Source: an uncultured Acidimicrobiia bacterium
Lineage (GTDB): Bacteria; Actinomycetota; Acidimicrobiia; Acidimicrobiales; JACDCH01
Length of the DNA: 64,000 bases
Assembly (NCBI GenBank): GCA_963840695.1
Contig: CAWIZW010000012.1
Coordinates: 154,424-218,423, forward strand
Direction of reading: 5' to 3'
The first letter of the stretch is position 1. Every line of letters begins with the position of its first letter. Shown here piece after piece: positions 10,287 through 55,408 of this stretch. The translations under genes were made by a program, and so were the position numbers. Under the pieces are notes generated by a model that saw nothing but the letters and a program-made list of their open reading frames with translations, did not search any database and was not told where the DNA came from.

Positions 10287-11066
10287 TCAGCTCCGAAGTG
10301 CGCCGGGCTCATCGAGCCACCGGTTCAGGGCGAGGTTGCGAGCGTTGCGCAGGGCGAAGGTGTGCTGCACCGCCTTCCGGATGCGCCGCTGCGCCCCGGC
10401 GGTGACGGCGACCTGCCGCAACAGGTAGTCGGCGGCGTCGCCGTGGTCGGCCTCGGCATAGGCGTGCACCTTGAAGTTCTCGACCTCGATGCCGTAGTGC
10501 TCGCGCAGGCCCTCGTACATGAGCTTGGCGTAGCCGGTGCTCGCCGCGAACCGCTCACCGGCCCAGCCGAACGCGGCCAGCCCCTCCTCGTAGCTGCGGC
10601 GCATGAAGTAGCACGACGTGAACACGAGTCCGATCGTCTCCGGCAACGGGACGTACTCGAGCAGCTCGTCGTCGGAGATGCCGAGCATCCGTGCCCACTC
10701 GACCTTCATGTCGACGTGGTTGCGGTCACCGGCGAAGCCGGTCTCGTCGGCCAGGTTCTGGCACCAGTGGATGAAGTGCTCCGACGACGCCAGGTCGAGG
10801 GCGTCGGTGTCGGGGCTGTTCGACACGAGCGAGCCGAACTCGGCCGTGTACCAGACCCCGAGGAAGTAGTACTCCTTGCAGAAGCGGCGGAGGTGCTCCT
10901 CGGAGAGCCGGCCGTCGGCGACCGCCTGCCACACCTGGTTGCGCGTCGTGACCGTCCCGGCCTGGACCGCCTCGAGCTGCGCCATGAACGCGTCGACCGG
11001 CAGCGCCTCGGCGCTCGCCGCCCGCCCCCGGACGTCGGCGAACGGCCGGGCCTGCGTAGCTGACAT
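10287..11066 (-). CDS. Heme-oxygenase-like fold (TenA/PqqC superfamily) iron-containing redox enzyme family protein
   Basis: The gene is intact. The helical protein includes RFCKEYYFLGVWYTAEFG and HAYAEADHGDAADYLL. ATG 11066 sits 7 nt after a TAACCT hexamer, which suggests a leaderless transcript. Confidence 0.6.
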   Translation of the reverse strand: MSATQARPFADVRGRAASAEALPVDAFMAQLEAVQAGTVTTRNQVWQAVADGRLSEEHLRRFCKEYYFLGVWYTAEFGSLVSNSPDTDALDLASSEHFIHWCQNLADETGFAGDRNHVDMKVEWARMLGISDDELLEYVPLPETIGLVFTSCYFMRRSYEEGLAAFGWAGERFAASTGYAKLMYEGLREHYGIEVENFKVHAYAEADHGDAADYLLRQVAVTAGAQRRIRKAVQHTFALRNARNLALNRWLDEPGALRS

Positions 11067-11075
11067 GCGTGTCAG
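11060..11075. promoter_or_regulatory. Palindromic operator-like site 4a (CTGACAtgcgTGTCAG)
   Basis: The right flank is GTTA. The site contains the minus-strand ATG 11066. It lies in the divergent gap between the TenA-like/liv operon and the cupredoxin gene. Confidence 0.6.
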
Positions 11076-11086: not shown

Positions 11087-11102
11087 CTGACACGCACGTC
11101 AG
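11087..11102. promoter_or_regulatory. Palindromic operator-like site 4b (CTGACAcgcaCGTCAG)
   Basis: It lies 11 bp from site 4a. In the minus orientation it sits just upstream of the TAACCT -10 candidate for the 11066 gene. Confidence 0.6.
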
Positions 11103-14065: not shown

Positions 14066-16110
14066 ATGAGGATCGCGGTGGATGTCGGCGGGACCTTCAC
14101 CGACGTCGTCTGCGTGACGGCCGACGCCGAGCTGCTGCTCGACAAGGTCCCGACCACGCTCGAGGACCAGTCGATCGGTGTGATGGACGGCATCGCCCGC
14201 GTCGCCGAGCGGCTCGGGCTCGACGTGGCGTCGTTCCTCGGCGGCCTCGAGGTCGTCGTCCACGGGACGACGATCGCCGACAACACCATGATCGAGATGG
14301 ACGGCGCCGCCACCGGATTGCTGGTCACCGAGGGCCATCGCGACGAGATCGAACTGCGGCGGGTCCACAAGGAGGCGATCTGGGACCCGTCGTACCCGGC
14401 GCCCATCCCCATCGCTCGTCGGCGGGCCCGCATCCCGATCCCCGAGCGGATCGACCACACCGGTGCGGTGCTGCTGCCCCTCGACGAGGAGGCCGTCCGG
14501 CGCGGCGTGCGACGGCTCCGGCAGCTCGGCGTGCGCTCGATCGCGGTCCTGTACCTCTTCTCCTACGTCGACCCGACCCACGAGCTGCGCACGCGCGAGT
14601 TGATCCTCGACGAGTACCCCGACGTCGAGCACGTGTCGCTGTCGCACGAGGTCCTCGCGGCCGGACCGGAGTTCGAGCGCACCAGCACGACGCTCGTCAA
14701 CGCCTACGTGGCACCGCGGGTCGCCGCCTACACGGGCCGGCTCGTCGAACGGTTGCGGGCCGCGGGCTACGCCGGCCCGGTCCAGATCGTCCAGGCGACC
14801 GGCGGCGTGATGCCGCCCGACCACGTCGTGCGCCGCGCCGTGACGTTGCTGGGCTCGGGCCCGACCGGTGGGGTCATGGGCGCGGCCGTGGCCGCCGCGC
14901 AGCGCGTCGGCGCCCGACTTCCTCGCCGTCGACATGGGCGGCACGAGCTTCGACATGTGCCTCGTGCGGGGCGGCACCCCCGAGATCCGCACCGACCGGA
15001 ACTGGCGCTACCGCTACTACATCGGCGTCCCCATGGTCGACGTCCGCTCGATCGGCGCCGGCGGTGGGTCCGTGGCGCGGGTGCGGGAAGGGGCGCTGCT
15101 CGTCGGGCCCGAGTCGGCCGGTGCCGTGCCCGGGCCCGCCTGCTACGGGCGGGGCGGCGACCGCGCCACGGTGACCGACGCCGATGCCGTGCTCGGGTTC
15201 CTGCCCGTGCAGGGCTTCGCCGGCGGGCGCATGACCCTCGACGTCGAGGCGTCGCGCGCTGCCATCGAGCGCGACGTCGCCGGTCCCCTCGGGCTCGACC
15301 TGATCGCGGCGGCATGGGGGATCGAGCGGATCGTCAACGCCAACATGGCGAACGGGATGCGCCGGGTCGCTCGCCGGCTACGGCGCCGACCCGCGCCAGC
15401 TCGCCCTCGTGGCCTACGGCGGCAGCGGCGCGCTGCGGGCCTGCGCTTTGGCCGAGGAGCTCGGCTCGGGCCGCGTGCTGGTGCCGAAGTCGGCCCCGGT
15501 GTTCTCGGCCCTCGGTTGCTTGTGCGCCGAGCCGGCGGTCGACATCGTCCGCACGTACGTGACCCCCATCAGCCAGGTCGACCTCGACCGCCTCCGGAGC
15601 CTCCTCGACGAGCTCGTGCTCGAGGCCGGCAAGGAGCTGCCGGGCGCCTTCGAGGCGACCCTCTACGTCCAGATGGCGTACTCGGGGCAGAACGCCGACA
15701 CGAGCGTCCCGGTGCCGGAGGGGTCGGCGCTCGGTCCCAGCGGGCTGCTCGACCTGGCCGAGCGCTTCCACGACCTCCACGAGTCCGACCGCGGCTTCGC
15801 CTTCCGCCAGCAGCAGCCCCAGGTGCGGGGCGTCCGGCTCGTCGCCAAGGTCGCCACCGACAAGCCGGGCGCGCTGGCCGTGCTGGGGTCGGTCACCGAC
15901 GCCGCCGGCGCGGCGCTCGGCACCCGTCCGGTCTGGTTCGGCGACGGGTGGGTCGAGACGCCGGTGGTCGACGGCGCCGTGCTCGGTGCGGGCTTCGCTG
16001 CCGAGGGCCCGTGCCTCGTGCAGGAGCCGTTCACCGTCGTCGCGGTGTGGCCCGGCTGGCGGGTCGCGCTGGGCGCCCACGGGAGCTACGACCTGACCCG
16101 TGGGGAGTGA
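14066..16110 (+). pseudogene. Hydantoinase A / oxoprolinase family protein, two frameshifts (about 14900 and 15365)
   Basis: MRIAVDVGGTFTDVV, then FLAVDMGGTSFDMCLV in a second frame, then LVAYGGSGALRACALAEELG through to the end in a third frame. Confidence 0.8.
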
Positions 16111-16976: not shown

Positions 16977-17070
16977 GCCCCGGCCCCCTTGACAACTCAG
17001 CGGTTTCTGTCCAACTGTCTAGCGCATCGGCGAAGCCCTCAGCACCGAGGAACGGATCCTGGACGCGGCC

Positions 17071-17604
17071 GTGCGCTGCCTCGGGCGGTTCGGCATCCGG
17101 CGCACCTCCATGGCCGACGTCGCCACCGCCGCCGGTCTCTCCCGCGCCACCGTCTACAACCACTTCCCCGACCGGGAGGCGCTGCTCGAGGCCGTCACCG
17201 TCCGGCTGGCGCGCGCCTTCGTGGCCGAGAGCGAGCCGGTCGTGCGGCGCCGCCGCAGCCTGGCCGCCCAGGTCGGTGAGGCGGCCGTGTTCATCCGCGC
17301 CCACCTCGGCGACCAGTCCTTCGCGCCCGCCCCACCCGGCGAGGAGGACCACCTCCTCGCCGTGCTCCTCTCGGCCCGCGCCACCCATCTCGTCGAGGCC
17401 TGGGTCGCCTTCTGGGACCCGTTCCTCGCCGCGGCCGAGGCTCGCGGTGAGATCCGCCCCGGCCTCGACCACCGCCAGGCCGGCGAGTGGATCGTCCGGC
17501 TCCTGCTGTCCTTCGCCGTCATGCCCTCGGTGACCGTCGACCTCGACGATCCCGCCGCCGTCCGCGCCTTCGTGCGTACCCACCTCGTCCCCGGACTGGA
17601 GTAA
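17071..17604 (+). CDS. TetR/AcrR family transcriptional regulator (TetR-1); the true start is probably upstream of 17071
   Basis: The HTH is RRTSMADVATAAGLSRATVYNHF. The in-frame upstream sequence (STEERILDAAV, open from 17023) belongs to the fold, but no ATG/GTG/TTG is present there. A TTGACA hexamer lies at 16989-16994. Confidence 0.7.
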   Translation: MRCLGRFGIRRTSMADVATAAGLSRATVYNHFPDREALLEAVTVRLARAFVAESEPVVRRRRSLAAQVGEAAVFIRAHLGDQSFAPAPPGEEDHLLAVLLSARATHLVEAWVAFWDPFLAAAEARGEIRPGLDHRQAGEWIVRLLLSFAVMPSVTVDLDDPAAVRAFVRTHLVPGLE

Positions 17605-20645: not shown

Positions 20646-21777
20646 CTACCGCGGGAGGCCGAGGACGCGGTCGGCCAGGATCGTCTTCTGGATCTCACTG
20701 GTGCCGCCGGCGATCGACGCCGCCCGCGACCACAGCCACTGCCGCTGCCACCGCCCGACGAGGGGTGAGGCGGGGCCGACGACGTCGAGGGCGGCGGCCG
20801 AGAGGTGCTGGGTGGCGTCGGTCCACGCCAACTTGACCAGGCTCGACTCGGGCCCTGGCGCCTCGCCGCCGGCGAGCCGCGTGAGCGTCCTCCAGTTGTG
20901 CAGCCGCAGCAGCCGCACCTCGAGCCACGCCTGGGCCAGGCCATCGGCGACCTCGGTCCGCTCGAGGAGCCCTGCCGCCTCCGCCTCGGCCCACAGGGAA
21001 TCGAGGAAGACCTCGTGGACGACCTGCTCCTTGAACGGGAACGCCGTCCCCCGCTCGTGGGCCAGGGTCGTGCCGGCCACCTGCCACCCGTCGTCGAGGC
21101 CGCCGACGAGGTGGTCGTCGGGCACGAACACGCCGTCGAGGAACACCTCGTTGAACTCCGACTCGCCCGTGATCTGCCGGAGGGGGCGCACCTCGATGCC
21201 GGCGTCCTCCATGTCGACGACGAAGTAGGAGATGCCCGTGCCGGTTCGGGCGAGGCAGATGCCCCAGCGGGCGAACTGGGCGTACGACGTCCACACCTTC
21301 TGGCCGGTGAGCCGCCAGCCTCCGGCGGCGTCCGTCGCGGGTGGCGGCGGTGCGCAGCGACGCCAGATCGGAGCCGGCGTCGGGCTCGCTGAAGAGCTGG
21401 CACCACAGCTCCGACGCGTCGAGGATCGGGCGCAGCCAGCGAGCCTGCTGGTCAGCCGTCCCGTGGGCGAGGAGCGTCGGGCCGGCGAGGTTGATCCCGA
21501 CGCGGTTGACCGGTTGCGGTGCGCCGGCGCGGGCGTACTCGGCGTTGAACAGGGCGACCTGGACGGGACTGGCGCCGCGGCCGCCGTGCTCGACCGGCCA
21601 GTGGATGCCGACCCACCGGGCGCCGGCGAGGCGCGCCTGCCACCGGCGCCCCCAGGCGATCTCGTCGGCTGCCGACGCGAAGGACGCGGGCGACGGGTCG
21701 GCGGCGACGGCGCCAACCAGCCAGTCCCGGGCCTCGGCGGCGAACGCCTCCTCGGCGGGGGTGAACGAGAGGTCCAC
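20646..21777 (-). pseudogene. Acyl-CoA dehydrogenase, frameshifted
   Basis: The N-terminal half (VDLSFTPAEEAF...LFSEPDAGSDLASLRT) and the C-terminal half ([12 protein letters not shown]...IAGGTSEIQKTILADRVLGLPR) are in different frames. GTG 21777 shares 1 nt with the upstream stop. Confidence 0.75.
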
Positions 21778-23480
21778 TACAGGTCCCAGAAGCGCCCGCG
21801 GCCGGCGGCGGTGAGCTCGGCGCGCAGGTCGGCCTCGTCGGCGGCGGAGAAGGGCCGGTACGTCTCGCGGCCCCGGTCCCGGATCCAGAGGGCGTCGGGA
21901 CCGATGAGGTCGCGGCGCCACTTCTGGCGGGCCAGCTCGCGCTTCACGACCTTGTTCGTCCCGGTCGTCGGCAGCTCCGCCGCGACCCGCACATACCGGG
22001 GACGCCACTTCGGCCCGACCTCGTGCTGGGCGTCGAGCCAGCCGGCGAATGCGTCGGGGTCGAAGGCGGCGCCGGGCCGGAGGACGAGCGCCGCCATCAC
22101 CTGGTCGCCGGCGTGCACGTCGGGAACGCCGTAGGCCGCCGCCAGCACGACGTCGGGGTGGCGAGCGAGGGCGTCGTCGATCGGGCCGGCCGGGAAGTTC
22201 TCGCCGTCGACGCGGATCCAGTCGCCCGCTCGCCCCGCGAAGTAGAGCCATCCCTCGGCGGTGACGTAGCCGAGGTCGCCGGACCAGTACCAGCCGCGCC
22301 GCAGGGTCCGGGCCTCGGCCTCGGGGTTGCCGTAGTAGCCCTCGAAGGGCCCGGGGCCGGCCGTGCTCACGATCTCGCCGACGCACTCCTCGGCGTTCAC
22401 GAGCCACCCGGCGTCGTCGAACCGGGCGCGGGGTCGCTCGCTGCCGTCCTCGTCGACGACCTTCACCGTCTCGGTCACCATCCCGACGGCTCCTGCCGGC
22501 ATCGCTGGATCACGCTGCACCGCCACCCCGCCCTCGGTGGCCCCGAAGGCGTCGACCACCTCCACGCCGAAGCGGCGACCGAACGCCTCGACCACCTCGG
22601 GCGACCCTTCGTTGCCGAAGGCGATGCGCAGCGGGTTGTCGGCGTCGTCGGGTTGCACGGGCGTGGCGACGATGTAGGAGAGGGGCTTGCCGGTGTAGTT
22701 GAACCACGTGGCGCCGTAGCGGCGGACGTCGGCGATCCATCCCGAGGCGCTGAACCGGCGAGCGAGGGCGACGGACGCTCCAGCGACGACCGCCGGCAGC
22801 CATCCCACCATGAGGGCGTTCGAGTGGAACAGCGGCATGCACACGTAGCCGACGTCGTCGGGCTGCAGTTCGAGGATCTGGCGCATCCGTTCGCCCGTGG
22901 TCAGCAGGCGCCGCTGGGAGCAGATGACCGCCTTGGGTGCCGACGACGTGCCCGAGGTGAACACCAGCACCCACGTCGTGCCGACGTCCGGCTCGAGCCG
23001 GGGGTCGACGGCCGGGTGGCGGGCGAGCTCGGCGTCGAGGCCGTCGCCGACGACGAGCACCGCAGGAAGGTCGGCGGCGATGGGCTCGAGGAGGTCGAGG
23101 TGCGCGGGCTCGGTCACGACGAGCTGGCAGTCGGTGTGGGTGACGTCACGCAGCAGGTGCTCGTCGCGGCGGGTGTGGTTCAGGCCGACGACGACCGCGC
23201 CGCTGAGCGCGGCTCCGCCGAGGGCGAAGAGGTACCCCGGAACATTGTCGAGGAGCACGGCGACGTGCGGCGGCCGTGCGGGATCGAGCCGGTCGAGGAA
23301 CAACCGGGCCCACCGCGCCGATTCGGCGAGGTACTCGGCGTGGGTCCACCGCTCGTCGCCGGCGCGTACTGCGACACGGCCGGCGATGGCGGGATCGGTG
23401 GCGTTGCGGCGCAGCAGGGCGGCGGCGTTGGCGGCGGGGAGGTCGGCCTGGCCAGGCGCGGGCGCAGTTCGGCTGGCCAT
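21777..23480 (-). CDS. Long-chain acyl-CoA synthetase (AMP-binding, FadD type)
   Basis: The ORF is an intact 567 aa. Motifs are FTSGTSSAPKAV, WYWSGDLGY and TGTNKVVKREL. Confidence 0.85.
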   Translation of the reverse strand: MASRTAPAPGQADLPAANAAALLRRNATDPAIAGRVAVRAGDERWTHAEYLAESARWARLFLDRLDPARPPHVAVLLDNVPGYLFALGGAALSGAVVVGLNHTRRDEHLLRDVTHTDCQLVVTEPAHLDLLEPIAADLPAVLVVGDGLDAELARHPAVDPRLEPDVGTTWVLVFTSGTSSAPKAVICSQRRLLTTGERMRQILELQPDDVGYVCMPLFHSNALMVGWLPAVVAGASVALARRFSASGWIADVRRYGATWFNYTGKPLSYIVATPVQPDDADNPLRIAFGNEGSPEVVEAFGRRFGVEVVDAFGATEGGVAVQRDPAMPAGAVGMVTETVKVVDEDGSERPRARFDDAGWLVNAEECVGEIVSTAGPGPFEGYYGNPEAEARTLRRGWYWSGDLGYVTAEGWLYFAGRAGDWIRVDGENFPAGPIDDALARHPDVVLAAAYGVPDVHAGDQVMAALVLRPGAAFDPDAFAGWLDAQHEVGPKWRPRYVRVAAELPTTGTNKVVKRELARQKWRRDLIGPDALWIRDRGRETYRPFSAADEADLRAELTAAGRGRFWDL

Positions 23481-23498
23481 CTCGCCGGCGAGCCTAAC

Positions 23499-23514
23499 CT
23501 GACATCTGCGTCAG
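23499..23514. promoter_or_regulatory. Palindromic operator-like site 7 (CTGACAtctgCGTCAG)
   Basis: The left flank is TAAC. It lies in the divergent gap between the acyl-CoA synthetase (ATG 23480, -10 candidate TAGGCT on the minus strand) and TetR-2 (TACGCT 23533-23538, then 8 nt, then ATG 23547). Confidence 0.65.
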
Positions 23515-23546
23515 CTCGGGCGGGTGCCCGCCTACGCTCTCGGGCA

Positions 23547-24181
23547 ATGCGTGCATCTCCTGCAGCCGCCCGATCCGGCGCGCCGGCCGAGGGGCGGGCG
23601 CTGCGGGCCCGCGGGCAGCGGACCGTCCGCAAGCTCCTCGATGCCGGTGTCACCGTGCTCGCCGCCCGCGGCTACCACGCTGCGCGCGCGTCGACGACAT
23701 CGTCAAGGCGGCGAAGACGTCGCACGGCACCTTCTACCTGTACTTCGCCAACAAGGAGGACCTCGTGCGGGCCCTCGTGCTCGACGTCGGCGAGGCCATG
23801 GCCACCCACGCCGGAACGCTCGGCGCCCTCACCCCCGACGACGCCGGCCGCGCCGCGCTCCACGAGTGGATCCGCGCCTTCGGAGATCTCTACGCCCGGT
23901 ACAGCCCGGTGATCCGCAGCTGGGTCGAAGCCGAGATCGACACCCACGAGTTCGGCCAACTCGGCGCCGACGTCCTCGGGGGGTTCGCCGCCGTCCTCAC
24001 CGACCGCATCGCCGCATCCGATGCCGACGTCGTCGACCCGGCCAACGCCGCCGTCGTCCTCGTCGCCATGATCGAGCGCGGCAACTACTACGCCACCGTC
24101 GGACAGATCCGGGCAGAACCGGACGAACTGGCCGCGTCGCTCGCCCGTTCCGCCCACGCGGCCCTGTTCGGCTCCCGCTGA
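23547..24181 (+). pseudogene. TetR/AcrR family transcriptional regulator (TetR-2), frame broken inside the HTH region
   Basis: RTVRKLLDAGVTVLAARGYHAAR then VDDIVKAAKTSHGTFYLYFANKEDL continues in another frame. The shift maps to the GCGCGCGCG run at 23682-23690, consistent with one extra GC unit. Confidence 0.7.
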
Positions 24182-27469: not shown

Positions 27470-28502
27470 GTGGGGGGGACGATGCCGGCGGCAGTGCTGC
27501 GCGGCCCCGGCGTGCTCGAGGTCGAGGACGTGCCGGTACCGGAGCTCGGTCCGAACGACGTGCTCGTCGAGGTCGACCGCTGCGGCGTCTGCGGCAGCGA
27601 CCTCCACCTCGTGCTCGAGGGCTGGGGCCAGGTCGGGTCGATCCCGGGTCACGAGTGGACCGGCGTGGTCGCCGACGTTGGCACCGATGTCACGCGCTGG
27701 CGCGCCGGCGATGCCGTCGTAGGCGGTCCCACCGTCCGCTGCGGCCACTGCCGGCACTGCCGGGCCGGCCGCCCGTCGCTCTGCGCGGGGCGCGACACGC
27801 CCGGCGTGCACGTGTGGAAAGGCGCCTTCGCCCGGTACACCTCGGCGCCCGAGGGCGAGCTGCTCGCCCTGCCCGACGGGTTGGCCTCCCGGACGGCGGC
27901 GTTGACCGAGCCGCTGGCGGTGGCGTTGCACGGGATCACGCGGTCGGGCGCCAGGCCCGGCGACCGCGTGCTCGTGTCGGGCGCCGGTCCGATCGGTGCC
28001 CTGACGATCGCGGCGCTCCGCGCCCTCGGCGTCGACGACGTCGTCTGCGTCGAGCCCGGCGAGCAGCGGCGCCTGCTCGCCGAGGAGGCCGGGGCGACCC
28101 AGGTCAGGACGCCGGACGAGCTCGACCAGCCCACGATCGCCGAGCCCGGGCGCGTCGTCGACGACCCGTTCGACGTCGCCCTCGAGTGCTCGGGCAACAA
28201 CCGGGCCATGGAGGCGGCGCTGGGCCAGCTCGAACGGGGCGGGATGCTCGTCCTCGTCGGCAACGGAATGCACCGGCCCAAGTTCGACAACAACCGGATC
28301 GTCCTCAACGAGGTCATGATCACCGGTGCCTTCACCTACGACCCCGACGGCTTCAGCCGCGCGCTCGGCGCTGCTCGCCTCGGGGCGGCTGCCGATCGAC
28401 GCGCTGCTCGAACCCGACGACGTCCCGCTCGCGGGCGCACTCGAGGCCATGCGGGGGCTGGCCGAGGGCCGCCTCGCCGGCAAGGTCCTCGTGAAACCGT
28501 GA
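27470..28502 (+). pseudogene. Zinc-dependent alcohol dehydrogenase (MDR family), one frameshift near 28370
   Basis: Motifs are CGVCGSDLH, GHEWTG, the structural-zinc segment CGHCRHCRAGRPSLC and SGAGPIGAL. The tail LLASGRLPIDALLEP...GKVLVKP is in another frame. Confidence 0.8.
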
Positions 28503-28954
28503 GCAAGCTCGGCCCGCGCTTCTCGAAGCCGCCGCGGCTGAACCACGTGGCGATGTCGTTGCCGGCCGACGCCCTCGACGAGTCGGGCCGGCAGGCCGTG
28601 TGCGCCTTCTACGGCGACGTGTTCGGGCTCGAGGAGTACGAGGGCCTCACCGAGGACCGTCGCCGGCTCGTGCTGCGGGCGCACACCCACGAGCAGTTCG
28701 TGTTCCTGATCGCCGACGAGGCGCACATGACCGCGCCGCGCATGGACCACTTCGGGCTGTCGGTGGCGACGAAGGAGGAGTTCGACGAGGTCGCCCGGCG
28801 GGCGGCAGCGTGGAAGGCGAAGGAGCCCGACGACGTCGACCTGGTCGAACCAACGGTCGAGGAGTACCCCGGTGCCCTCCGGCTCCACAGCTTCTACGTG
28901 CGCTACCGCCTCCCACTGATGGTGGAGACCCAGCACTTCGAGTGGCTCGCCTGA
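28499..28954 (+). CDS. VOC (glyoxalase/bleomycin-resistance/dioxygenase) family protein
   Basis: The frame is intact. GTG 28499 overlaps the ADH stop as GTGA. Segments include PRLNHVAMSLP and MDHFGLSV. Confidence 0.55.
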   Translation: MSKLGPRFSKPPRLNHVAMSLPADALDESGRQAVCAFYGDVFGLEEYEGLTEDRRRLVLRAHTHEQFVFLIADEAHMTAPRMDHFGLSVATKEEFDEVARRAAAWKAKEPDDVDLVEPTVEEYPGALRLHSFYVRYRLPLMVETQHFEWLA

Positions 28955-30575: not shown

Positions 30576-31743
30576 GTCGGGTTGGCTTCGGTCCAGCGCT
30601 TGAGCAGGCCGCGGGCGATCACGATGCGCTGGATCTCGTTGGTGCCCTCGCCGATGATCATCAGCGGCGCGTCGCGGAAGTAGCGCTCGACCGGGAACTC
30701 CTTCGTGTAGCCGTAGCCGCCGTGGATCCGCATGGCCTCGGTGGCGAGCTCGAACGCCGTCTCCGAGCAGAACAGCTTCGCCATGCCGGCCTCGACGTCG
30801 GCCCGCTCGCCCGCCTCGAACTTCTCCGCCGCCGAGCGCACGAGCAGCCTGGAGGCCTCGAGCTTCGTGGCCATGTCGGCCAGCTTGAACTGGATCGCCT
30901 GGTGGTGGTGGATCGGGACGCCGAAGGTCTCGCGCTGGTGCACGTACCTCATGGACGCGTCGAACGCGGCACGGCGCGACGCCGACGGCACGGGCGGCGA
31001 TGTTGATGCGGCCCAGCTCGAGCGAGCCGAGGACGTAGTGGAGGCCCGTGGCCGAGACCGTCGTCGCCGCCGAGGACGTTGGCCGCCGGGACCTTGTGGT
31101 CGACGTAGGTCATCTCGACGGTCTCGAGGCCCTTGTAGCCGAGCTTGTCGATCGCGGCGGCTCGTGGCGATGCCCTCGAAGGCGGGGCCGGGCTCCTTCT
31201 CGACGATGAAGCAGGTGATGCCCTCTGGGGTCCTGGCGGCGAGCGCGACGATGGCGGCGCGCTCGCCGTTGGTGACCCACATCTTCGTGCCGTTGAGGCG
31301 GTACTCGTCGCCGTCGCGCTCGGCCTTGCACCGGATGGCCTGGGTGTCGCTGCCGGCGTCGGGCTCGGACAGCGAGAACGCGCCGCGGCGCTCGCCCGTG
31401 GCGAGGTCGGGGAGCCAGCGGGCCCGCTGGTCGTCGGTCCCGAAGCGCGTGATGAGGGTGGCGGCGATGGTGTGGGTGTTGAGCACGCCGGCGAGCGACA
31501 TCCAGCCGTACGACAGCTCCTCCATCAGCCGGGCGTAGGTGATGGTGTCGAGCCCCAGTCCGCCGTAGTCGCGGGATCGATGCGAGCGCCGAACAGCCCG
31601 AACGCCTTCATCTGCTCGACCCACGGCTCCGGGTACTCGTCGGCGTGCTCGTACTCCGACGCCTTGGGGATCACCTCCTTGGCGACCCAGTCGCGGATCG
31701 TCGCGACGAGCTCGTCGGCGAGCTCGGGATCGGTGGCGGCCAT
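30572..31743 (-). pseudogene. Acyl-CoA dehydrogenase, frameshifted
   Basis: Fragments are MAATDPELADELVATIRDWV, FSLSEPDAGSDTQAIRCKAERDGDEYRLNGTKMWVTNG and IHGGYGYTKEFPVERYFRDAPLMIIGEGTNEIQR. The stop overlaps the PhoD GTG as GTGA. Confidence 0.8.
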
Positions 31744-31759: not shown

Positions 31760-33124
31760 TCAGTAGCGCTGCAGCTCGGGCCAGAGGTCGTCCCAGTCGA
31801 GGCGCTGGTCCCGGGCGACGAAGACGCCCCACCCGTCGTCGATCATCGGGAACGGCCCGAGCGTGGCCACGTGCTCGACGTCGGCCCAGAAGCGGTCGAC
31901 GTAGGCGCGGTCGGGCGCGACGACGATCGTGGTGTCGCTCCGGCCCGGCGGCAGCTCGGCCCAGTACCAGTACGTGAGGTGGGCGCTGATCGGCCGCAGG
32001 GCGGGCGACCACAGCTCGAGGGCGCCGGCCTCGCTGTAGGTCATGGTCAGGACGGTCGCGCCCGGGTGGGCGGCGGCGACGCGCTCGATCTCGGCGACGA
32101 CCTCGGGCCAGCCGAGCATCTCGCCCAGCTCGGGGTTCAGGCGGGCCAGGAACCCGGCGGTCGACCTCGGCGTCAGCGGCATCGAGAACGGTGCCATGAG
32201 GACGGCGAGGATGCCGATCGCGGCGAAGGTCGGTCCGGGCCGCCACGCCTCGGCGACGACGGCCCCGGCGCCGATGAGAGCCGGCAGCAGGACGCCGGCG
32301 TAGTACGGCTTGCCGCCGGTCGCCATCACCACGACCACGACGACGGCGAAGGCGACGACGAGCCACCGCTCGGGCGTGCGCACGAGACCGACGACTGCCA
32401 GCACCGCGGCGGGACCGGCGAACAGGAACTGGTACGGGAGCGTGAGCATCGCCTCGCCGTAGTCACGGATTCGAGCGGCGAAGGCGAACGCGGGCCAGTC
32501 ATGGCTCGCCTGCCACGCCAGGTTCGGGCTCCAGAGCAGGAGCGCGACGGCGGCGCCGGCGAGGACCCACGGGGTGAACAGGACGTCGCGCGAAGGGCTG
32601 AGGAGCAGGCCGGCCACGACGGCGAGCACGAGGTAGGTGACCGTCCACTTGTTGAGCAGCGCGACGCCGACGGCGGCGCCCACCGCGAGCCACAGCCACG
32701 GGTCGGCGCCGTGGACGAGCTTCACGACGAGGAGGGTGATCACCGCGCTAGGCGAGCACCTCGAACGTGACGGTGCCGAGGAAGTGACCGGTCGTCAGGA
32801 ACATCGGGCACACGGCGGCGGCGAGCGCGGCCAGCAGCTGGCCCCGCGAGCCGGCGCCGAGCTCCTTGGCGAGAAGCGCGGTGACGACGACGGTCGCGCC
32901 GTGGATCAGCGCCGGCGCCACCCGCAGGCCGACCTGGCTGGCGCCGAAGAGCAGCTCCTGGACACGGAACAGCGCAGGGGTGATCGGCGGGTGGTCGACG
33001 AACCCCCACGCCAGCCGGCGGCCGCAGGCGAGGTAGTAGAACTCGTCGCGGTGGAACCCCCACACGCCGGCGGTGGCGAGGTGGAAGGCCGCGGTGAGGC
33101 GCCGACGACGACCGCCGGCGTCAC
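31760..33124 (-). pseudogene. Glycosyltransferase family 39 / ArnT-like membrane glycosyltransferase, frameshifted
   Basis: WGFHRDEFYYLACGRRLAWGFVDHPPITPAL, followed by about 10 TM segments. There is a frame break with a stop at about 32745 and a probable one near 33095. The N-terminal assignment is uncertain. Confidence 0.55.
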
Positions 33125-33816
33125 CCCTCGACCACCAACGCCGAGGCGATCATGTGCAGCACGGTGTTCCGAGCGACGTCGTCGTCGATGCGGGCGCCGT
33201 CGTGGTCGCCGAAGCGGTGCATGGCGAACCAGGCGATGGTCTCCAGGACGAAGCGGGCGGCGACGGCGGCGTCGGGCACGGGACGGAAGTGGCCGCTCTT
33301 GACCCGCCGGCTGATGTAGCGCGCCAGGTCGTCGATGAACGGTGCCCGACCCTTCTCGTAGAAGAGCTCGGCGATGGCCGGCCGGTCGAGCGCCGACCGC
33401 TCGACGATGCGGATCAGGCGGCGGTACCGGAACAGCCAGTCGTAGTGCTCGCCGACGATCGCATCGAGCTCCGCCCGCACATCACGCGGCGAGCGCCGAC
33501 CGGCGAGCGCCGCCGCCAGCGCCGGCCGGCCTGACGTGCTCGCCAGGGCGGTCTGCAGCTCCGTCTCGACCGTGGCGCTCGGCGATGCCTTCGCCGGGAG
33601 GTCGCTCTCGTCGACCGGCGTTCCCACCTCGCGCAGGAGGACGAGGTGGAAGAGGGCCTCCTTGCTCTCGGCGTACTGGTAGAGGAGACCGGGCGAGATC
33701 CCGGCGACCGTCGCGATGTCGGCCATCCGGGCCCGCTGGAAGCCCACCTGCTGGAAGATCTCGACCGCGGCGTCGAGGATCTCGCCGACCCGTCCGGGCG
33801 GTCGCGTGCGAACCAT
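33121..33816 (-). CDS. TetR/AcrR family transcriptional regulator (TetR-3)
   Basis: The ORF is an intact 231 aa. The HTH is ARMADIATVAGISPGLLYQYAESKEALF. Confidence 0.85.
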   Translation of the reverse strand: MVRTRPPGRVGEILDAAVEIFQQVGFQRARMADIATVAGISPGLLYQYAESKEALFHLVLLREVGTPVDESDLPAKASPSATVETELQTALASTSGRPALAAALAGRRSPRDVRAELDAIVGEHYDWLFRYRRLIRIVERSALDRPAIAELFYEKGRAPFIDDLARYISRRVKSGHFRPVPDAAVAARFVLETIAWFAMHRFGDHDGARIDDDVARNTVLHMIASALVVEG

Positions 33817-33850
33817 GAGCGCATCATAAATGAATGACTCATTCAGTCAA
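33817..33850 (-). promoter_or_regulatory. Near-consensus promoter with an embedded palindromic operator for TetR-3
   Basis: On the minus strand the sequence reads TTGACT, 16 nt, TATGAT, 6 nt, ATG 33816. The spacer is occupied by the perfect palindrome TGAATGAgTCATTCA (plus-strand 33831-33845). This is the most AT-rich spot in the window. Confidence 0.6.
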
Positions 33851-36699: not shown

Positions 36700-37131
36700 T
36701 CAGCCCCGACTGGGCAGCGCGGCGCTGGCAGAACCCGCCACCTTGACCTCACCGTCGGCGTTGGCCAGGGCGATGTCGAGGTCGACGAGGTTCTCGCCCT
36801 CCTCCTTGCGCTTGCCGGTGACGGTGATCGAGGAGACCAGGGTCTCGCCCGGCCACGTCTGCTTCGTGAACCGGACCTTGAACGTCTTGAGGTTGCCGAT
36901 GCCGACCCAGTCGGTGACGGACCGGCCGAGCAGGCCCATCGAGAACATGCCGTGGCCGAACACCGAGGGCAGGCCGGCCGCCCTGGCCTTCTCGTCGTCG
37001 TGGTGCATGGGGTTGAAGTCCCCCGAGGCCCCCGCGTACTTCACGAGGTCGGTGCGCGACAGCACATGGCGCACCTCGGGGGCGGTGTCGCCCTCGCTCA
37101 CATCCTCGAAGAACAGCTTCTCCTCGGCCAC
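36700..37131 (-). CDS. MaoC-like (R-specific enoyl-CoA) hydratase, hotdog fold
   Basis: The gene is intact from GTG 37131, which is preceded by GGGGGAG. The key segment is YAGASGDFNPMHHDDEKARAAGLPSVFGHGM. Confidence 0.8.
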   Translation of the reverse strand: MAEEKLFFEDVSEGDTAPEVRHVLSRTDLVKYAGASGDFNPMHHDDEKARAAGLPSVFGHGMFSMGLLGRSVTDWVGIGNLKTFKVRFTKQTWPGETLVSSITVTGKRKEEGENLVDLDIALANADGEVKVAGSASAALPSRG

Positions 37132-39919: not shown

Positions 39920-41096
39920 CTACGACCGCGGCAGACCGAGGATGCGGGTGGCGATGATGTTGCGCTGGATCTGGCTGGTGCCGCCGGCGATGGTCGAGGC
40001 GAAGCTGACGAAGTAGCTGTGGGCCCAGCGCCCGCCCTCCTCGCCCCGCTCGGGATCGACGACCGCGCCCCACGGACCCTGCAGCTGCATGCCGAGCTCG
40101 AACAGCTCCTTGCCCAGCTCCGACGACGCCAGCTTCAGGTAGCTGTGCTGCGGCGCCGAGCCGCCCTGGGCGAAACCGGCGAAGCCCTGGTAGCCGAGGG
40201 CCCGCAGCGAGGCGACGCGCTGCGTGGCGCGGGCGAGGGTCCGTCGCACGCCGGCGTCGTCGAGCAGGCCGCGACGTCGGGCCAGCGCCCACAGGTCGTC
40301 GACCGCGACCTGGGCCCGGGCCACGCCCTCGAGCCAGAGCCCGCCCCGCTCGTGGGCCAGCGAGCCGGTCGTGATCCGCCAGCCGTCGTTCTCGGCGCCG
40401 ACGCGGTTGGCCACCGGGACCTCGACGTCGGTGAGGAACACCTCGGCGAAGTCGGCGCCGCCGGTGATGTGGCGCAGCGGCCGCACCTCGATGCCCGGGC
40501 GTGTCCATGTCGACCATGAGCGCCGAGATCCCCTTGTGCTTCGGCACGGTCGGGTCGGTGCGGACGTACAGGAAGCAGCGATCGGCGAACGACGCGTACG
40601 ACGTCCACACCTTCTGGCCGTTCACGACGTACACGTCGCCGTGGCGCTCGGCGCGGGTCGAGAGCGCGGCGAGGTCGGAGCCGGCGCCCGGGCTCGCTCA
40701 TCCCGACGCACCAGACGGTGTCGCCGCGGATGGCGTCGGCGGCGAGGGCCTTCTGGGCCTCGTCGCCGTACTCGAGGAGCGACGGTCCGACGATGGCGTA
40801 GCCGCCGAAGTGGAGGCTCCGCGGCACCCCTCGGCGCGCAGAGCTCCTCGAGGTAGACCATCGTCTGGGTCGGCGTGGCGTCGCGGCCGCCGAGCTCGGG
40901 TGGGTAGCCGGGCACCATCCAGCCGCTGTCGAAGAGCTTCGCCTGCCACCGGCGGGCCCACTCGGGCACGCCGTCGGTCACCTGGCCCTCGCTGAAGTCG
41001 CGCCGGACCTTCGCCTCGGGCGGGCGTGTGCTCGTCGAGGAAGGCGACGAGCTCGTCGCGGAAGGCCTCGTCGGCCGCCGACCAACCCAGCTTCAT
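39920..41096 (-). pseudogene. Acyl-CoA dehydrogenase, multiply frameshifted
   Basis: Fragments are [87 protein letters not shown] and [23 protein letters not shown]. Confidence 0.75.
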
Positions 41097-44679: not shown

Positions 44680-44705
44680 TGTACGCTGTCCATGTACGGT
44701 GTCCA
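44680..44705. promoter_or_regulatory. Two tandem 13-bp direct repeats (TGTACGCTGTCCA / TGTACGGTGTCCA) in the oxygenase / TetR-4 divergent gap
   Basis: The repeats are adjacent, with 12 of 13 positions identical. They lie between ATG 44648 (-) and TTG 44727 (+) and are a candidate TetR-4 operator. Confidence 0.45.
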
Positions 44706-44726: not shown

Positions 44727-45344
44727 TTGGCAAGACCCCGGAGCAAACGAGGTTCGGGCCAGCAGCTGCGGTCCGACCTGATCGACGCGGCCAACGCCAT
44801 CCTCGACCGGACCGCCGACCCGGCCGACGTGACGGTGCGCGGCGTGGCGGCGGCGGTCGGGGTGGCGCCGAACGCGGTGTACCTGCACTTCGCCGACCGC
44901 GACACCCTCCTGACCGAGGTCGTCGTCGACCGCTTCGGCGCCTTCAAGGCCGCCCTCGCCGACGCCGTCGAGGGCGTGGACGACCCCCTCGAGCGCCTCA
45001 AGCGAGGGCACGCCGCCTACTGCGCCTTCGCCATCGAGCACCCCGGCCACTACCGGATGCTGTTCGGCAACACGGGTGTCGACCCCGCTCGCCGGGACCT
45101 GTGGAACCGCCGCCTCGAGGTCGCGTTCCCGGCGTTCGAGATCCTCGTGGAGTGCTGCCGTCGATGCATCGACGGCGGCGTGTTCGGCCCGGTCGATCCC
45201 TACGAGCTCGCCGGTGCGCTCTGGGCCTTCGAGCACGGATGGGTCGTCCTCAAGTCGGGCGGACGCGAAGGCGACGTCGTGCCGGCCGCCGGCGCCGCCC
45301 TCGACGTCCTCCTCGCCGCGCTGGGCGCGACGCGAGCGGGCTAG
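44727..45344 (+). CDS. TetR/AcrR family transcriptional regulator (TetR-4)
   Basis: The frame is intact. With the TTG start it reads (M)ARPRSKRGSGQQLRSDLIDAANAIL. The HTH is VTVRGVAAAVGVAPNAVYLHFADRDTL. Confidence 0.8.
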   Translation: MARPRSKRGSGQQLRSDLIDAANAILDRTADPADVTVRGVAAAVGVAPNAVYLHFADRDTLLTEVVVDRFGAFKAALADAVEGVDDPLERLKRGHAAYCAFAIEHPGHYRMLFGNTGVDPARRDLWNRRLEVAFPAFEILVECCRRCIDGGVFGPVDPYELAGALWAFEHGWVVLKSGGREGDVVPAAGAALDVLLAALGATRAG

Positions 45345-47800: not shown

Positions 47801-48935
47801 CGGGGCCCTGCTCGTCGAGGTCGCTGGGCAGGCCGAGCAGCCGCTCGGCGATGACGTTGCGCTGGATCTCGCTCGTGCCGCCGGCGATCGAGAGGCAGCG
47901 GTTGGCGAGGAAGCCGTAGAGCCAGCCGGCGGCGTCGCCGTCGTCGGCGACTGCGGCCCGGCCGAGCGAAGCCGAGGCCGACCTCCTGCGTGCGCTGGTC
48001 GTGCTCGACGCCGAGGAGCTTGCGCACGCTCGCCTCCGGGCCCGGGCCGGCAGCGGCGGCTCGGCGAGGGAGCGCAGCGTCATGCGGAGCGCCGAGGACG
48101 GCGAGGGCCTGGGCCGTCGGCGAGCAGCCCGCCGACGTGGTCGACGTCGACCGGATCGGCGGCGCCGAGGTCGGCCCAGGAGCGCCGAGGACGAGCTCGA
48201 CGCCGAGGCCGAACGACGAGCCGCGAGCCCATCGACACCCGCTCGTTGGCGAGCGTCGTGCGCGCGGCCGCCCACCCGCCGCCGACGGCGCCGACGACGG
48301 CGTCGTCGGGCACGAACACGTCGGTGAGGAACACCTCGTTGAACATCGCCTGCCCGGTGAGCTCGCGCAGCGGCCGGATGCTCGATGCCGTCGGCCGCCA
48401 TGTCGACGACGAAGGCGGTGATGCCGTCGTGTCGGGGCACGTCGGGTCGGTGCGGGCGAGGCAGAGGCCGCAGGTCGGCGTCGGCGGCCATCGACGTCCA
48501 CACCTTCTGGCCGGTGAGGAGCCAGCCGCCGTCGACCTTCGACCGCCTTGGTCGCCAGCGACGCCAGGTCGCTGCCGGCGCCGGGCTCGCTGAACAGCTG
48601 GCACCACGACAGCTCGCCCCGCAGCGTCGGGCCGACTACCGGTCCTGCTGCTCGGCGCGTGCCGTGGGCGATGAGCGTCGGGCAGCACCCACGCGCCCGA
48701 CCTGCGAGGTGGGGACGGCGGACGTGACGCGGCCGCCAGCTCCTCGTCGATCACGAGCTGCTCGAGCGGCGACGGCGTCGCGGCCCCACGGCGCGGGCCA
48801 GTGCGGGGCGATCCAGCCGCCGTCGGCGAGCAGCGCGCCGCCACTCGGACTTCGTCGTGCGCGGCGAGCTCGTCGACGCACGGCGCGGATCGGCCGCGCG
48901 GCCGGCGTCGGCCTCCGGCGGGCAGCTCGACGGTC
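47797..48935 (-). pseudogene. Acyl-CoA dehydrogenase, heavily frameshifted (boundaries approximate)
   Basis: Fragments are LLADGGWIAPHWPAPWGRDA, PLEQLVIDEEL, GQKVWTSMAADADL, HDGITAFVVDMAADGIE, IRPLRELTGQAMFNEVFLTDVFVPDDAVVG and SIAGGTSEIQRNVIAERLLGLP. No clean start codon is visible. Confidence 0.6.
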
Positions 48936-49945
48936 GATGGGCCGGCGCGCGCCGGCCGCGGCCAGCTCGGCGACGCGCCGCTCGCCAGCGGTGCGGCAGG
49001 GCCGACGAGGGCGCGCGGTCGCGAGCGCCCGCTTCAGGTACAGGTGGACGTCGTGCTCCCAGGTGAACCCGATGCCGCCGAGCACCTGCACGCAGTCCTT
49101 CGCCGCCGGCGAGGAAGGCCTCGGGCGCGAGGGCGGCGGCGACGGCGGTGGCGAGGCCGCCCTCGTCGCCGTCGACGTCGGCGCGCGCAGCGCGTCCCAG
49201 GTCGCGGCCCGGGCCAGCTCGAGCGGTGCAGAGCATGTCGGCGCACCGGTGCTTGACCGCCTGGAACTGCCCGATCGGCTGGCCGAACTGCTCGCGCACG
49301 CGCGGCGTACGCGGCCGCCGTCTCGACGCACCACGCCGCGCCGCCGATGGCCTCGGCGCACCACAGCCGCACGGCGATCGACGTCGACCAGATCGTCGGG
49401 GTCGTCGAGGAGCGCAACGGCGGGAACGTGGTCGACGACGACGTCGGCGACCGGGCGGGTCTCGTCGGTCGACGGGCGGTCGCGTGCGCCTCGAACGCCA
49501 TCGACGACCGCCCACCGAGCGGCGCTGACGGGCAGGAGCAGCCAGTCGGCGCCGACGGCGCCCGGGACGGCTTCGATGCGGCCGGACACGGTGCCGCCGG
49601 CGTCGGCATCGAGCGGCGCGACGTCCCACGCCAGCGCCGCCCGCCCTTCGGGGACCTCGCCACCGAGGCGTTGCACCGCGGTGACGGCCGCGGCCGTTGG
49701 CAGGAACGACCCCGGCGCGCAGGCCGCGACCGAGCTCCTCGAGCACGACGCCGAGCTCGGGGAGCCCGAAGTCGGTGCCGAGCGTGGGCCAGTCGGCGGG
49801 CACGGCCGGCTCACGGGCCCGGACGCCGCCGTCGAGCCAGGCGCGCGGCACCTCGCGCGGCACGTTGCTCTCGACCCAGCGCCGCGCCGAGTCGTGCAGC
49901 GCGGCGTGCTCGTCGCTGATCCCGAGGCGTCCGACCTTCACCAGC
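48936..49945 (-). pseudogene. Acyl-CoA dehydrogenase-like partner protein, heavily frameshifted (3' boundary approximate)
   Basis: Fragments are VKVGRLGISDEHAALHDSARRWVES, SGRIEAVPGAVGADWLLLPV, REQFGQPIGQFQAVKHRCADM and VLGGIGFTWEHDVHLYLKRALA. Confidence 0.6.
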
Positions 49946-49960
49946 CGCCTCGCCGGCGGG

Positions 49961-50081
49961 GCGGGTCGAGGACGACCGTGCCGCGACCCTCGGAAACCGG
50001 CGGTCGATGCACACTCGTCGGCGCGGTCGAAGACGACCGTGCCGCGACCTTCGGAAACCGGCGGTCGATGCACAGTCGTCG
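49961..50081. repeat. Tandem 60/61-bp duplication between the ferredoxin and the ACAD-like gene
   Basis: Copy 1 is 49961-50020 and copy 2 is 50021-50081. They are near-identical, with core GACGACCGTGCCGCGACC(C/T)TCGGAAACCGGCGGTCGATGCACA. Confidence 0.75.
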
Positions 50082-50093
50082 CCGCTGACGGGC

Positions 50094-50295
50094 TCATGCG
50101 TCGTCGCGGTGGAGCGTGATCGACTTCGTGGGGCAGCCGTCGGCGGCGAGCTCGATCTGCTCGGGCGGGTCGCCGGCCGGGTCGACGACGATGGCGATCA
50201 GGTCGTCGTCGAGATCGAACGTGGCCGGCGCGCAGGTGGGCGCAGTTGCCCGATCCGATGCAGGTGTCCCGGTCGATCTCGATGCGCAGCCCCAC
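50094..50295 (-). pseudogene. Small single-cluster ferredoxin (3Fe-4S/4Fe-4S type), one frameshift
   Basis: GLRIEIDRDTCIGSGNCAHL, then (shifted) PATFDLDDDLIAIVVDPAGDPPEQIELAADGCPTKSITL. GTG 50295 lies 8 nt after a TACTGT hexamer on the minus strand. Confidence 0.65.
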
Positions 50296-50311
50296 GGGGC
50301 CCAACAGTAAC

Positions 50312-50327
50312 CTGACACGGGTGTCAG
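50312..50327. promoter_or_regulatory. Palindromic operator-like site 11 (CTGACAcgggTGTCAG)
   Basis: It lies in a divergent gap. On the plus strand, TAACCT (50308-13) is fused to the left arm and followed by 7 nt and GTG 50321. On the minus strand, TACTGT (50309-50304) is followed by 8 nt and GTG 50295. Confidence 0.65.
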
Positions 50328-51402
50328 TGATCGATGCCGACGCCCACGTCAACGAGGACCCGCTGGCGTGGACGAGCTCGCCGAGGCGCCACCCGGGTTG
50401 GCTCGGCGACCGGCGAAGTCGGCCGGCCGATGGGTCGCCGAGATCGACGGGAAGCTCTACCCCCGCCAGGACGGCCGGGCTGCGGCGTGCCGGTCGACGC
50501 CGTCGACCAACCCGCGCGCGTGCCGGCGCGCCGGCGACCGAGACCGGACTCGACACCCGGCTCGCCGACATGGACGCCGAGGGCATCGACGTGCAGGTGC
50601 TCTTCGGCGGGCTGGTGATCGGCGTCACCGGCTACGACGACGCCGGGTTCGCCCTCGACGTGTGCCGCGCCTACGACGACTGGCTCCTGACGAAGGTGTG
50701 CGGGCACGCCCCCGACCGGCTCAAGGGCGTCGCGGTCGTGCCCGCTGCAGGACGTCGGCCGGGCCATCGACGAGGCCGAGCGGGCGCGCGGCCTGGGCGC
50801 CGTCGCCGTGACGATCCCGCCGGTGCTGGGCGACCGCAACCTCGACGACCCGTCGCTGCTGCCGTTCTTCGAGGCGTGCGCCGCGCTCGACCTCGCCGTC
50901 GCCGTGCACTCGGCGCCGGGCATGAACCTCGCCGCTGCCCGGGGCCGGGCGGTTCGACAACTACGCGATGGTGCACGCGCTGTCGTTCCCGGTCGACCAG
51001 ATGGTGGCGCTCACCGCCCTCACCCTCGGCGGGCGTGCTCGACCGGTTCCCGGCGCTGCGGGTCGCGTTCCTCGAGTCGGGCGTCGGGTGGGTGCCGTAC
51101 TTCGTGCACCGCCTCCACGAGCACCACGAGAAGCTCCCCCACCTGCTCGGCGGCGACGTCGACCGACCCGCGGGCCATCCTCGAGCGGGGCCAGTGCTAC
51201 TTCTGCTTCGAGGCCGAGGAGCCGCTGCTCGCGACCTACGTCGAGCACCTCGGCGACGACGTCGCTCGTCTACGCCAGCGACTACCCCCACTGGGACTCG
51301 ACTTCCCCGGCACCGTCGCGGACGTCCGCCGCCAGGACCTGCCCGAGGCGACCCTCGACCGCGTGCTCGGCGACAACGCGCGCACGGCTGTACGACCTCT
51401 GA
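50321..51402 (+). pseudogene. Amidohydrolase (amidohydrolase_2 / ACMSD-like) family protein, heavily frameshifted
   Basis: Fragments are VIDADAHVNEDPLAW, MDAEGIDVQVLFGGLVIG, AVAVTIPPVLGDRNLDDPSLLPFFEACAALDLAVAVHS, FLESGVGWVPYFVHRL and YASDYPHWD. Confidence 0.7.
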
Positions 51403-51422
51403 GCGACCGTAGCAAACGCCGC

Positions 51423-51456
51423 GAACACCGTCGAACACCGTCGGGAGTGAACCGTC
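51423..51456 (+). promoter_or_regulatory. Direct repeats GAACACCGTC x2 plus a degenerate third copy (GAACCGTC) upstream of the GGDEF-EAL gene
   Basis: The copies are at 51423-51432, 51433-51442 and 51449-51456. They are followed by a comparatively AT-rich stretch (TATCGTTCACTCTACGTAGTTGGATGGCTACATAGC) ending 5 nt before ATG 51526. Confidence 0.3.
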
Positions 51457-51525
51457 GGACCCATGCGGACGGCCGAGGGGCGTCGGTATCGTTCACTCTA
51501 CGTAGTTGGATGGCTACATAGCGGG

Positions 51526-53898: not shown

Positions 53899-53999
53899 CG
53901 GCAGGGACGGCCAGGCTCGTCCACCGGCGACGATCATCGACCTCGCAGGGCGGCGGCTACGGCTCCTGGGCTGATCGCCGGTCGCGGTGGCGCGCGACC

Positions 54000-55369: not shown

Positions 55370-55377
55370 CCCCGAAC

Positions 55378-55393
55378 CTGACACGAGCGTCAG
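55378..55393. promoter_or_regulatory. Palindromic operator-like site 12 (CTGACAcgagCGTCAG)
   Basis: It lies in a divergent gap. On the plus strand, TACTGT (55396-55401) is followed by 7 nt and ATG 55409. On the minus strand, the TACCCT hexamer (55398-55393) overlaps it, and GTG 55369 lies 8 nt beyond the site. Confidence 0.65.
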
Positions 55394-55408
55394 GGTACTG
55401 TCGCCGCC

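Follow-up and report, generated by a model that had tools for sequence, protein, structure and literature searches.

TetR-2, one of four TetR genes in a 64,000-nt stretch of DNA (hereafter, the window), is probably the cognate regulator of a CTGACR-N4-YGTCAG palindrome that recurs upstream of genes of lipid catabolism. The frame break that interrupts its coding sequence is most likely an error of the consensus, introduced in sequencing or assembly, and not a mutation. Taken as a whole, an ordinary TetR repressor of the palindrome regulon with an artefactual break is the best explanation that we have, and we hold it with somewhat more confidence than doubt. An earlier note on this DNA had named TetR-2 as the leading candidate for the regulon repressor and had left two readings of the break. 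The candidacy gained support from comparison with relatives. Of the two readings, the artefact was judged the likelier one; an inactivated regulator with a constitutively derepressed regulon was not upheld, given about 30 frameshifts in the window, intact relatives and no relaxed selection.

Sequences and comparisons

The GC content of the window is 73.5%, and its closest database relatives are metagenome bins of Acidimicrobiia/Acidimicrobiales. For the frameshift survey, 1,196 coding-like ORFs of 83 related loci were searched against the window by tblastn. Near-identical contigs were obtained through protein-cluster look-ups. Four of them (L081, L082, L083 and L164) are metagenome contigs from four different samples; the proteins P0001 and P0002 come from JGI metagenomes.

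We took 75 TetR-2 relatives from species-representative genomes and counted a site when the exact core TGACR-N4-YGTCA was found at most 250 bp upstream. Among loci with a FadD orthologue, 54 had enough upstream sequence, and the neighbour gene, readable in 46 of these, was very diverse. A metagenome scan for FadD gave relatives at most 72% identical, which were used for operator conservation. The -10-like boxes were called by eye and by conservation. Coordinates of the features are collected in Table 1.

Table 1. Features of the fadD–tetR region and related elements of the window (positions are those of the window)
Feature	Positions	Strand	Basis or remark
Acyl-CoA dehydrogenase 3' of fadD, frame-broken	20646..21777	-	+1 insertion at about 21326
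Acyl-CoA ligase, FadD-like, 567 aa, intact	21777..23480	-	divergent from TetR-2
-10-like hexamer TAGGCT, putative fadD promoter	23491..23496	-	inferred from sequence
16-bp palindromic operator (candidate) CTGACATCTGCGTCAG	23499..23514	.	read from sequence and comparison with relatives
-10-like hexamer TACGCT, putative TetR-2 promoter	23533..23538	+	inferred from sequence and conservation
TetR-2 residues 1-47, N-terminal tail and helix alpha-1, ending GYHAAR	23547..23687	+	sequence; helices from AF2 model of P0001
GCGCGCGCG run with 2 extra bases (by convention 23688-23689)	23682..23690	+	DNA alignment to relatives
TetR-2 residues 48-210 and stop, other frame	23690..24181	+	alpha-2, alpha-3 (helix-turn-helix proper), ligand-binding domain
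TetR gene	about 17056-17604	+	
TetR-3	33121-33816	-	
TetR-4	44727-45344	+	
Exact core sites	689, 3477, 11060, 11087, 12134, 23499, 27439, 37178, 41354, 50312, 55378, 58587		

The reading frame of TetR-2

From the TetR-2 ATG, the frame reads M...GYHAAR for 47 residues, up to 23687; beyond this the coding sense is lost, and a stop follows at 23912. The frame closed by the stop codon 24179-24181 reads VDDIVKAAKTSHGTFYLYF... from 23690, and its first available start codon is GTG 23765. As sequenced, the gene could only give two products: a protein of 121 aa, 47 of them native, or a C-terminal fragment of 138 aa that would lack the DNA-binding domain. According to the AF2 model of P0001, the break after residue 47 would remove the helix-turn-helix proper and all that lies beyond it.

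The earlier note had placed the switch of frame in the GCGCGCGCG run and had explained it by a +2 insertion of one GC unit. Four relatives bear this out. All four contigs named above code for an intact protein of 210 aa and read CACGCGGCGCGCGTCGAC in frame where the window reads CACGCTGCGCGCGCGTCGAC, so that the window has 4.5 GC units versus 3.5 in the relatives. The comparison adds a neighbouring G-to-T change to the two extra nucleotides (T at 23681 in the window, G in 4/4 relatives). The flanks are 96.4-98.8% identical to the window at the DNA level, over 3.1-3.3 kb for L081 (96.6%) and L164 (98.8%) and over 1.8 kb for a further contig, L165.

Removal of the two extra bases gives a 210-aa protein with 98% identity, from end to end, to P0001 and P0002, both intact and 210 aa long. 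The repaired protein aligns without gaps to all the orthologues, which read ...GYHAARVDDIVKAAKTSHGTFYLYF.... No further indel or stop was found in TetR-2 in comparison with L081, L082 and L083. The dN/dS of the repaired gene against its relatives is 0.13-0.26, compared with 0-0.22 for the intact relatives among themselves and 0.24 for FadD. There is no sign of relaxed selection or decay: a genuine pseudogene is expected to have dN/dS nearing 1 or added lesions in the gene, and TetR-2 has neither.

Frameshifts across the window

The break in TetR-2 is far from unique. The tblastn search revealed about 33 junctions at which one continuous homologue changes frame in the window, 27 of them strongly supported. 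This amounts to about 0.45 frameshifts per kb, or roughly one per 2 kb of the 64 kb, and about two thirds of them belong to the net +1 (or -2) class. The genes at 741-1652, 1731-2357, 14069-16098 and 47820-49480 contain 2-5 breaks each. The junctions include those at 1252, 1473, 4080, 8196, 14866-14898, 15356-15370, 21326, 31570-31579, 34729, 39066, 40494-40500, 40687-40697, 45829, 48469 and 57224-57231. The junctions at 14866 and 15356 fall in the same hydantoinase-A gene, which is 64-80% identical to its counterpart in locus L003. The acyl-CoA dehydrogenase at 30578-31570 has an internal out-of-frame stretch between compensating shifts, and the region 48000-57000 is heavily fragmented, with few ORFs left. 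In-frame stops number 9 in 11,472 aligned residues, all of them in low-identity alignments across doubly shifted stretches.

Pfam searches on single ORFs returned partial domains, and searches on stitched frame pieces returned full-length ones. In particular, a Peripla_BP_6 match grew from 124-340 to 1-340 after stitching, a stitched acyl-CoA dehydrogenase recovered its N, M and C domains, and a stitched short-chain dehydrogenase became full-length. Since the Pfam stitching shows the same, the excess of frameshifts does not depend on the tblastn query set.

The comparison with L164, the relative with 98.8% identity, gave 39 substitutions and 5 indels over 3.25 kb. Three of the indels, at 20641, 23518 and 23542, add or remove a single G in a G run between genes. 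The other two, a +1 at 21326 in the acyl-CoA dehydrogenase and the +2 in TetR-2, break two of the three genes covered. The dehydrogenase, in which the tblastn junction falls at 21323, reads GGCGG at about 21326 where L164 reads GGGG, and its relatives P0121 and P0122 are unbroken proteins of 376 aa. The junctions lie in short G/C runs (CCCGGGC twice) of a window with 73% GC, a context suggestive of homopolymer errors but not decisive at this GC content.

The zinc alcohol dehydrogenase ORF at 27470-28954 (+) has 494 aa, about 150 aa above the norm of its family, and its Pfam domains stop near residue 300. It may be joined to the next gene through another frame error.

The TetR-2 break is most likely an error of sequence quality because about thirty frameshifts, this one included, occur in 64 kb. 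At about 0.45 frameshifts per kb, a gene of 635 bp has about a 25% chance of being hit, and therefore TetR-2 is not singled out. Real gene loss is unlikely for the multiply broken genes, since every frame piece keeps 70-87% identity to its orthologue.

Two other explanations of the break have to be weighed against these data. The frameshift could be a real and recent mutation that leaves TetR-2 without alpha-2 and alpha-3, nonfunctional, and the whole palindrome regulon constitutively derepressed. The break is indeed present in the given sequence and takes out the helix-turn-helix. A dinucleotide (GC)n run is a plausible site of slippage, and the combination of +2 with a substitution differs from the single-base changes at the other four L164 indels. 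Nevertheless, we regard a real mutation as improbable: the break shares the window with about 30 others, many of them in multiply broken genes with well-conserved pieces, 4/4 near-identical relatives are intact, dN/dS is low, and the GC run is short.

The second explanation makes the run a site of phase variation or of programmed frameshifting that toggles the regulator, and the only point in its favour is that the break falls in a short dinucleotide repeat. A phase-variable contingency locus is marked by a long tract and by length polymorphism among close relatives; here, the tract has 4.5 units only, and the same shorter, in-frame tract is present in all four relatives, each from a different sample. 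The run contains no slippery heptamer, and dozens of frameshifts in the window lie outside repeats. Such a switch is hardly credible. Thus, a consensus error is preferred in what follows, and the 210-aa protein is treated as the natural product.

The palindrome family in the window

With at most two mismatches, the palindrome gives 27 strand matches in the window versus 8.1 +/- 3.1 in shuffles. Exact cores (NTGACR-N4-YGTCAN) number 12 versus 0.05 expected (Table 1). The information content spans about 22 bp, wAAC-CTGACRYNNRYGTCAG-GTTw.

All 12 core sites are in 5' regions. The genes that bear them encode three acyl-CoA ligases, a zinc alcohol dehydrogenase, a MaoC hydratase, an enoyl-CoA hydratase, hydantoinase B, a solute-binding protein, a ferredoxin, an FGGY kinase, an alpha/beta hydrolase and a 2-hydroxyacid dehydrogenase. 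The site at 37178 is that of the MaoC gene (36700-37131). A TANNNT box stands no more than a few bases from many of the palindromes, and where gene starts can be placed (23499 and 27439) the start codon follows 8-10 nt past this box. Such a layout suggests near-leaderless promoters in which the operator would overlap the promoter core or lie in the spacer.

Two of the core sites, 11060-11075 and 11087-11102, form a tandem with 27 bp between their centres; a haem-oxygenase-like gene (-) flanks it on one side and a lipoprotein gene (+) on the other. In a related locus, L073, three operators stand in a row with 30-bp spacing (12308, 12338 and 12368). A two-mismatch site within TetR-3, at 33531, departs from the exact core and was judged to be due to chance. 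A literature search with the motif string returned plant WHIRLY and ERD15 only, and nothing bacterial was found.

Among the four TetR genes, TetR-2 alone has the site, as had been claimed: no palindrome match with fewer than 4 mismatches occurs in the 300 bp upstream of the other three. The private operators that the earlier note ascribed to two of them are present as sequences. A perfect palindrome, TGAATGACTCATTCA, occupies 33831-33845, 15 nt ahead of the TetR-3 start. This box (TGAATGA-N-TCATTCA) presumably resembles the box of Bacillus subtilis FadR (YsiA), which suggests that TetR-3 is a second, separate fatty-acid regulator in the window. Adjacent 13-bp direct repeats, TGTACGCTGTCCA/TGTACGGTGTCCA, lie at 44680-44705, just upstream of TetR-4.

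TetR-2 orthologues and the palindrome

Comparison with orthologous TetR genes, which the earlier note had suggested, provides the main evidence on the identity of the regulator. The core site is present upstream of TetR at 11 of the 13 orthologue loci (at least 54% identity) versus 2 of the 62 loci of more distant relatives (below 50% identity). The two exceptions, L029 and L035, both have the MaoC-SDR context of the orthologues.

The gene contexts of the site-bearing regulators are of at least two kinds. TetR is divergent from a fadD-ACAD pair in the window and in L003, L006, L081, L084 and L089, and from a MaoC-SDR operon in L002, L004, L005, L007, L009-L013, L029 and L035. In five of the latter loci (L009, L011-L013 and L029), a FadD orthologue that carries a separate site is found at a distance of 6.5-9 kb. 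Of the candidates for the regulator, TetR-2 is the best because its orthologues keep the site across differing gene contexts and the distant relatives do not. Moreover, among the 46 readable loci of 54, only one regulator, the TetR-2 family, recurs beside FadD orthologues; likewise, the site-bearing FadD promoters have no second regulator family that recurs beside them.

TetR dimers typically bind a 16-bp palindrome of two 6-bp halves. Judging from the conservation of the sites, we consider the TetR-2 family the probable cognate regulator of CTGACR-N4-YGTCAG.

At three other metagenome contigs (L106:1570-1680, L114:2210-2320 and L139:835-945), a TetR that is 52-55% identical to TetR-2 is divergent from a FadD orthologue, and a different inverted repeat, ACCGTACGCGGT ... 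ACCGCGTACGGT, replaces TGACR-N4-YGTCA. These loci weigh against the assignment, and they may reflect a change of operator inside the TetR-2 family.

The main alternative is that the site at 23499 serves as the fadD operator only, that TetR-2 is a bystander or a local regulator, and that another regulator, encoded elsewhere, binds the palindrome. Several observations agree with it. The site is found at 41 of 58 FadD orthologues, 9-96 bp upstream of the start, mostly with no TetR-2 orthologue detected nearby. Every TetR-2 orthologue site lies in the region common to the divergent target operon, and none could serve TetR alone. In the window itself, the site abuts the -10-like box of fadD and is 18 nt from that of tetR. 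Against it, the TetR-2 gene moves among at least two site-bearing operons and is always divergent from one of them, distant TetR relatives in motif-rich loci have no site upstream, and no second regulator family recurs beside the sites. We therefore consider the bystander role unlikely and keep TetR-2 as the probable regulator.

The fadD–tetR intergenic region

The earlier description of this region, with the palindrome, the TACGCT box, 8 nt and the ATG, was confirmed in all its coordinates (Table 1). The operator is unchanged in L081 and L083, the relatives that cover the site, and the alignment with L164 crosses it without an indel there.

On the fadD side, the TAGGCT hexamer is separated by 2 nt from the operator and by 10 nt from the fadD ATG (23480), and this geometry of operator and TANNNT box recurs at other sites of the window. 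The FadD-like ligase would be the first gene of a fadD-ACAD pair under control of the candidate operator.

On the tetR side, the TACGCT hexamer lies 18 nt past the operator and is followed by 8 nt (23539-23546) and the TetR-2 ATG 23547-23549. The box is kept in L081, L082 and L083, and a TANNNT box 8-9 nt ahead of the TetR start is also found in L003, L006, L084 and L089. With 8 nt from the -10-like box to the ATG, the TetR-2 mRNA would be nearly leaderless. A scan of 23380-23660 with the sigma-70 promoter consensus gave no match; this consensus is uninformative for a 73% GC actinobacterium.

The window also differs from all close relatives by a single G in the G runs at 23518 (+1) and 23542 (-1). 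The loss at 23542 makes the spacing from the -10-like box to the ATG 8 nt in the window versus 9 nt in the relatives. Both differences are probably consensus errors like the other indels.

Autoregulation had been read from the presence of the site in the promoter of TetR-2. The site is there, but it is not independent evidence of autoregulation, because it lies 2 nt from the fadD box and 18 nt from the tetR box and because FadD orthologues carry it too. The same spacing makes the site first of all a fadD operator. Autoregulation of TetR-2 is plausible as a by-product of the overlap of the operator with the tetR -35 region.

Protein family and related systems

The helix-turn-helix domain PF00440 (TetR_N) is annotated in 120/120 listed homologues of TetR-2, P0001 and P0002 among them; as sequenced, it is split over two frames in TetR-2. 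In 60 homologues, the segment S58-F66 of the recognition helix (SHGTFYLYF) does not vary at all, and T57 hardly does. The AF2 model of P0001 (pLDDT 91.3) has nine helices, with alpha-1 at residues 13-45, alpha-2 at 48-55 and alpha-3 at 59-65. A structure search with this model gave 185 PDB matches at E <= 0.001, and the best 50 of the 185 are all TetR-family regulators. By its PF00440 domain, its predicted fold and the listed structural neighbours, TetR-2 can be assigned to the TetR/AcrR family.

The similarity of TetR-2 to solved TetR structures is mostly confined to the helix-turn-helix. NCBIfam has no equivalog for TetR-2: all its matches cover the helix-turn-helix only and are far below the cut-offs. 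The best of them, the Bacillus FadR equivalog NF053878, reaches 49.8 bits versus a cut-off of 200, over residues 28-76 (the helix-turn-helix).

In its arrangement, TetR-2 follows the TetR-tetA paradigm, in which the repressor is likewise divergent from its target gene. The highest TM-scores to the model, 0.75-0.84, belong to EthR of M. tuberculosis, which has a hydrophobic, tunnel-type ligand pocket. EthR is about 21% identical to TetR-2, and its context, the ethA monooxygenase, is different. The operator of EthR is long (55 bp) and is bound by an octamer.

FadR/YsiA of B. subtilis and B. halodurans and FasR of M. tuberculosis are among the best structural and helix-turn-helix matches to TetR-2. 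The matching structures are 3whb/3whc with stearoyl-CoA, 5gp9/5gpa, and 6o6n with C20-CoA, at an identity of about 20%. FadR and FasR respond to acyl-CoA and are concerned with fatty-acid degradation, as is the palindrome regulon with its acyl-CoA ligases, dehydrogenases and hydratases; their operator sequence, however, differs from the palindrome of TetR-2.

By layout, the closest functional analogue appears to be the mycobacterial BkaR/Fad35R (Rv2506), a TetR that is divergent from an acyl-CoA ligase gene (fadD35) and has a palindromic 16-bp operator. Its structure (6yj2) has a TM-score of 0.53-0.59 to the model. BkaR is autoregulatory, and its dimer binds a 16-bp core (PMC3920632). We rejected BkaR/Fad35R as an equivalent of TetR-2 because the operator here is TGACR-N4-YGTCA, in contrast to GTTA-N-T-N4-A-N-TAAC of BkaR (PMC3920632). 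In addition, unlike BkaR, TetR-2 is known solely from the sequence of uncultured Acidimicrobiia.

Proposed mechanism

We propose that TetR-2 is an ordinary repressor of the TetR/AcrR family in an uncultured Acidimicrobiia-like actinobacterium, with a natural product of 210 aa and nine predicted helices. From the conservation of the 16 bp upstream of the orthologues, a TetR-2 dimer would be expected to bind the palindrome and to leave it with a ligand. The bound element would be CTGACR-N4-YGTCAG, 16 bp long and extended to about 22 bp, which seems to abut the -10 boxes of near-leaderless promoters for lipid catabolism (acyl-CoA ligases, dehydrogenases, MaoC and enoyl-CoA hydratases, and others). 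In the 66 bp that fadD and tetR share, a single operator would block the fadD-ACAD promoter from 2 nt beside its -10 box and would overlie the -35 region of the tetR promoter as well.

Release would be expected through an acyl-CoA or another lipid ligand. The choice of an acyl-CoA or lipid effector is a tentative guess, held at rather less than even confidence, from the content of the regulon and from structural neighbours of about 20% identity.

Significance

The frame break is a data-quality flag for the whole window, and calls of pseudogenes or frameshifts here need read support. If the break were a real null allele after all, it would be a natural regulatory knockout of a master TetR repressor in an uncultured Acidimicrobiia lineage, with a lipid-catabolic regulon (12 operators in the 64-kb window alone) permanently derepressed.

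As preferred here, with an intact repressor, the system follows the standard TetR paradigm and brings no new mechanism. What is of use is a TetR subfamily without a name so far, widespread in soil Acidimicrobiia metagenomes, that a comparative-genomic assignment links to the well-defined TGACR-N4-YGTCA operator. This would give a testable regulator–operator pair for lipid catabolism in a class whose genetics has hardly been studied by experiment.
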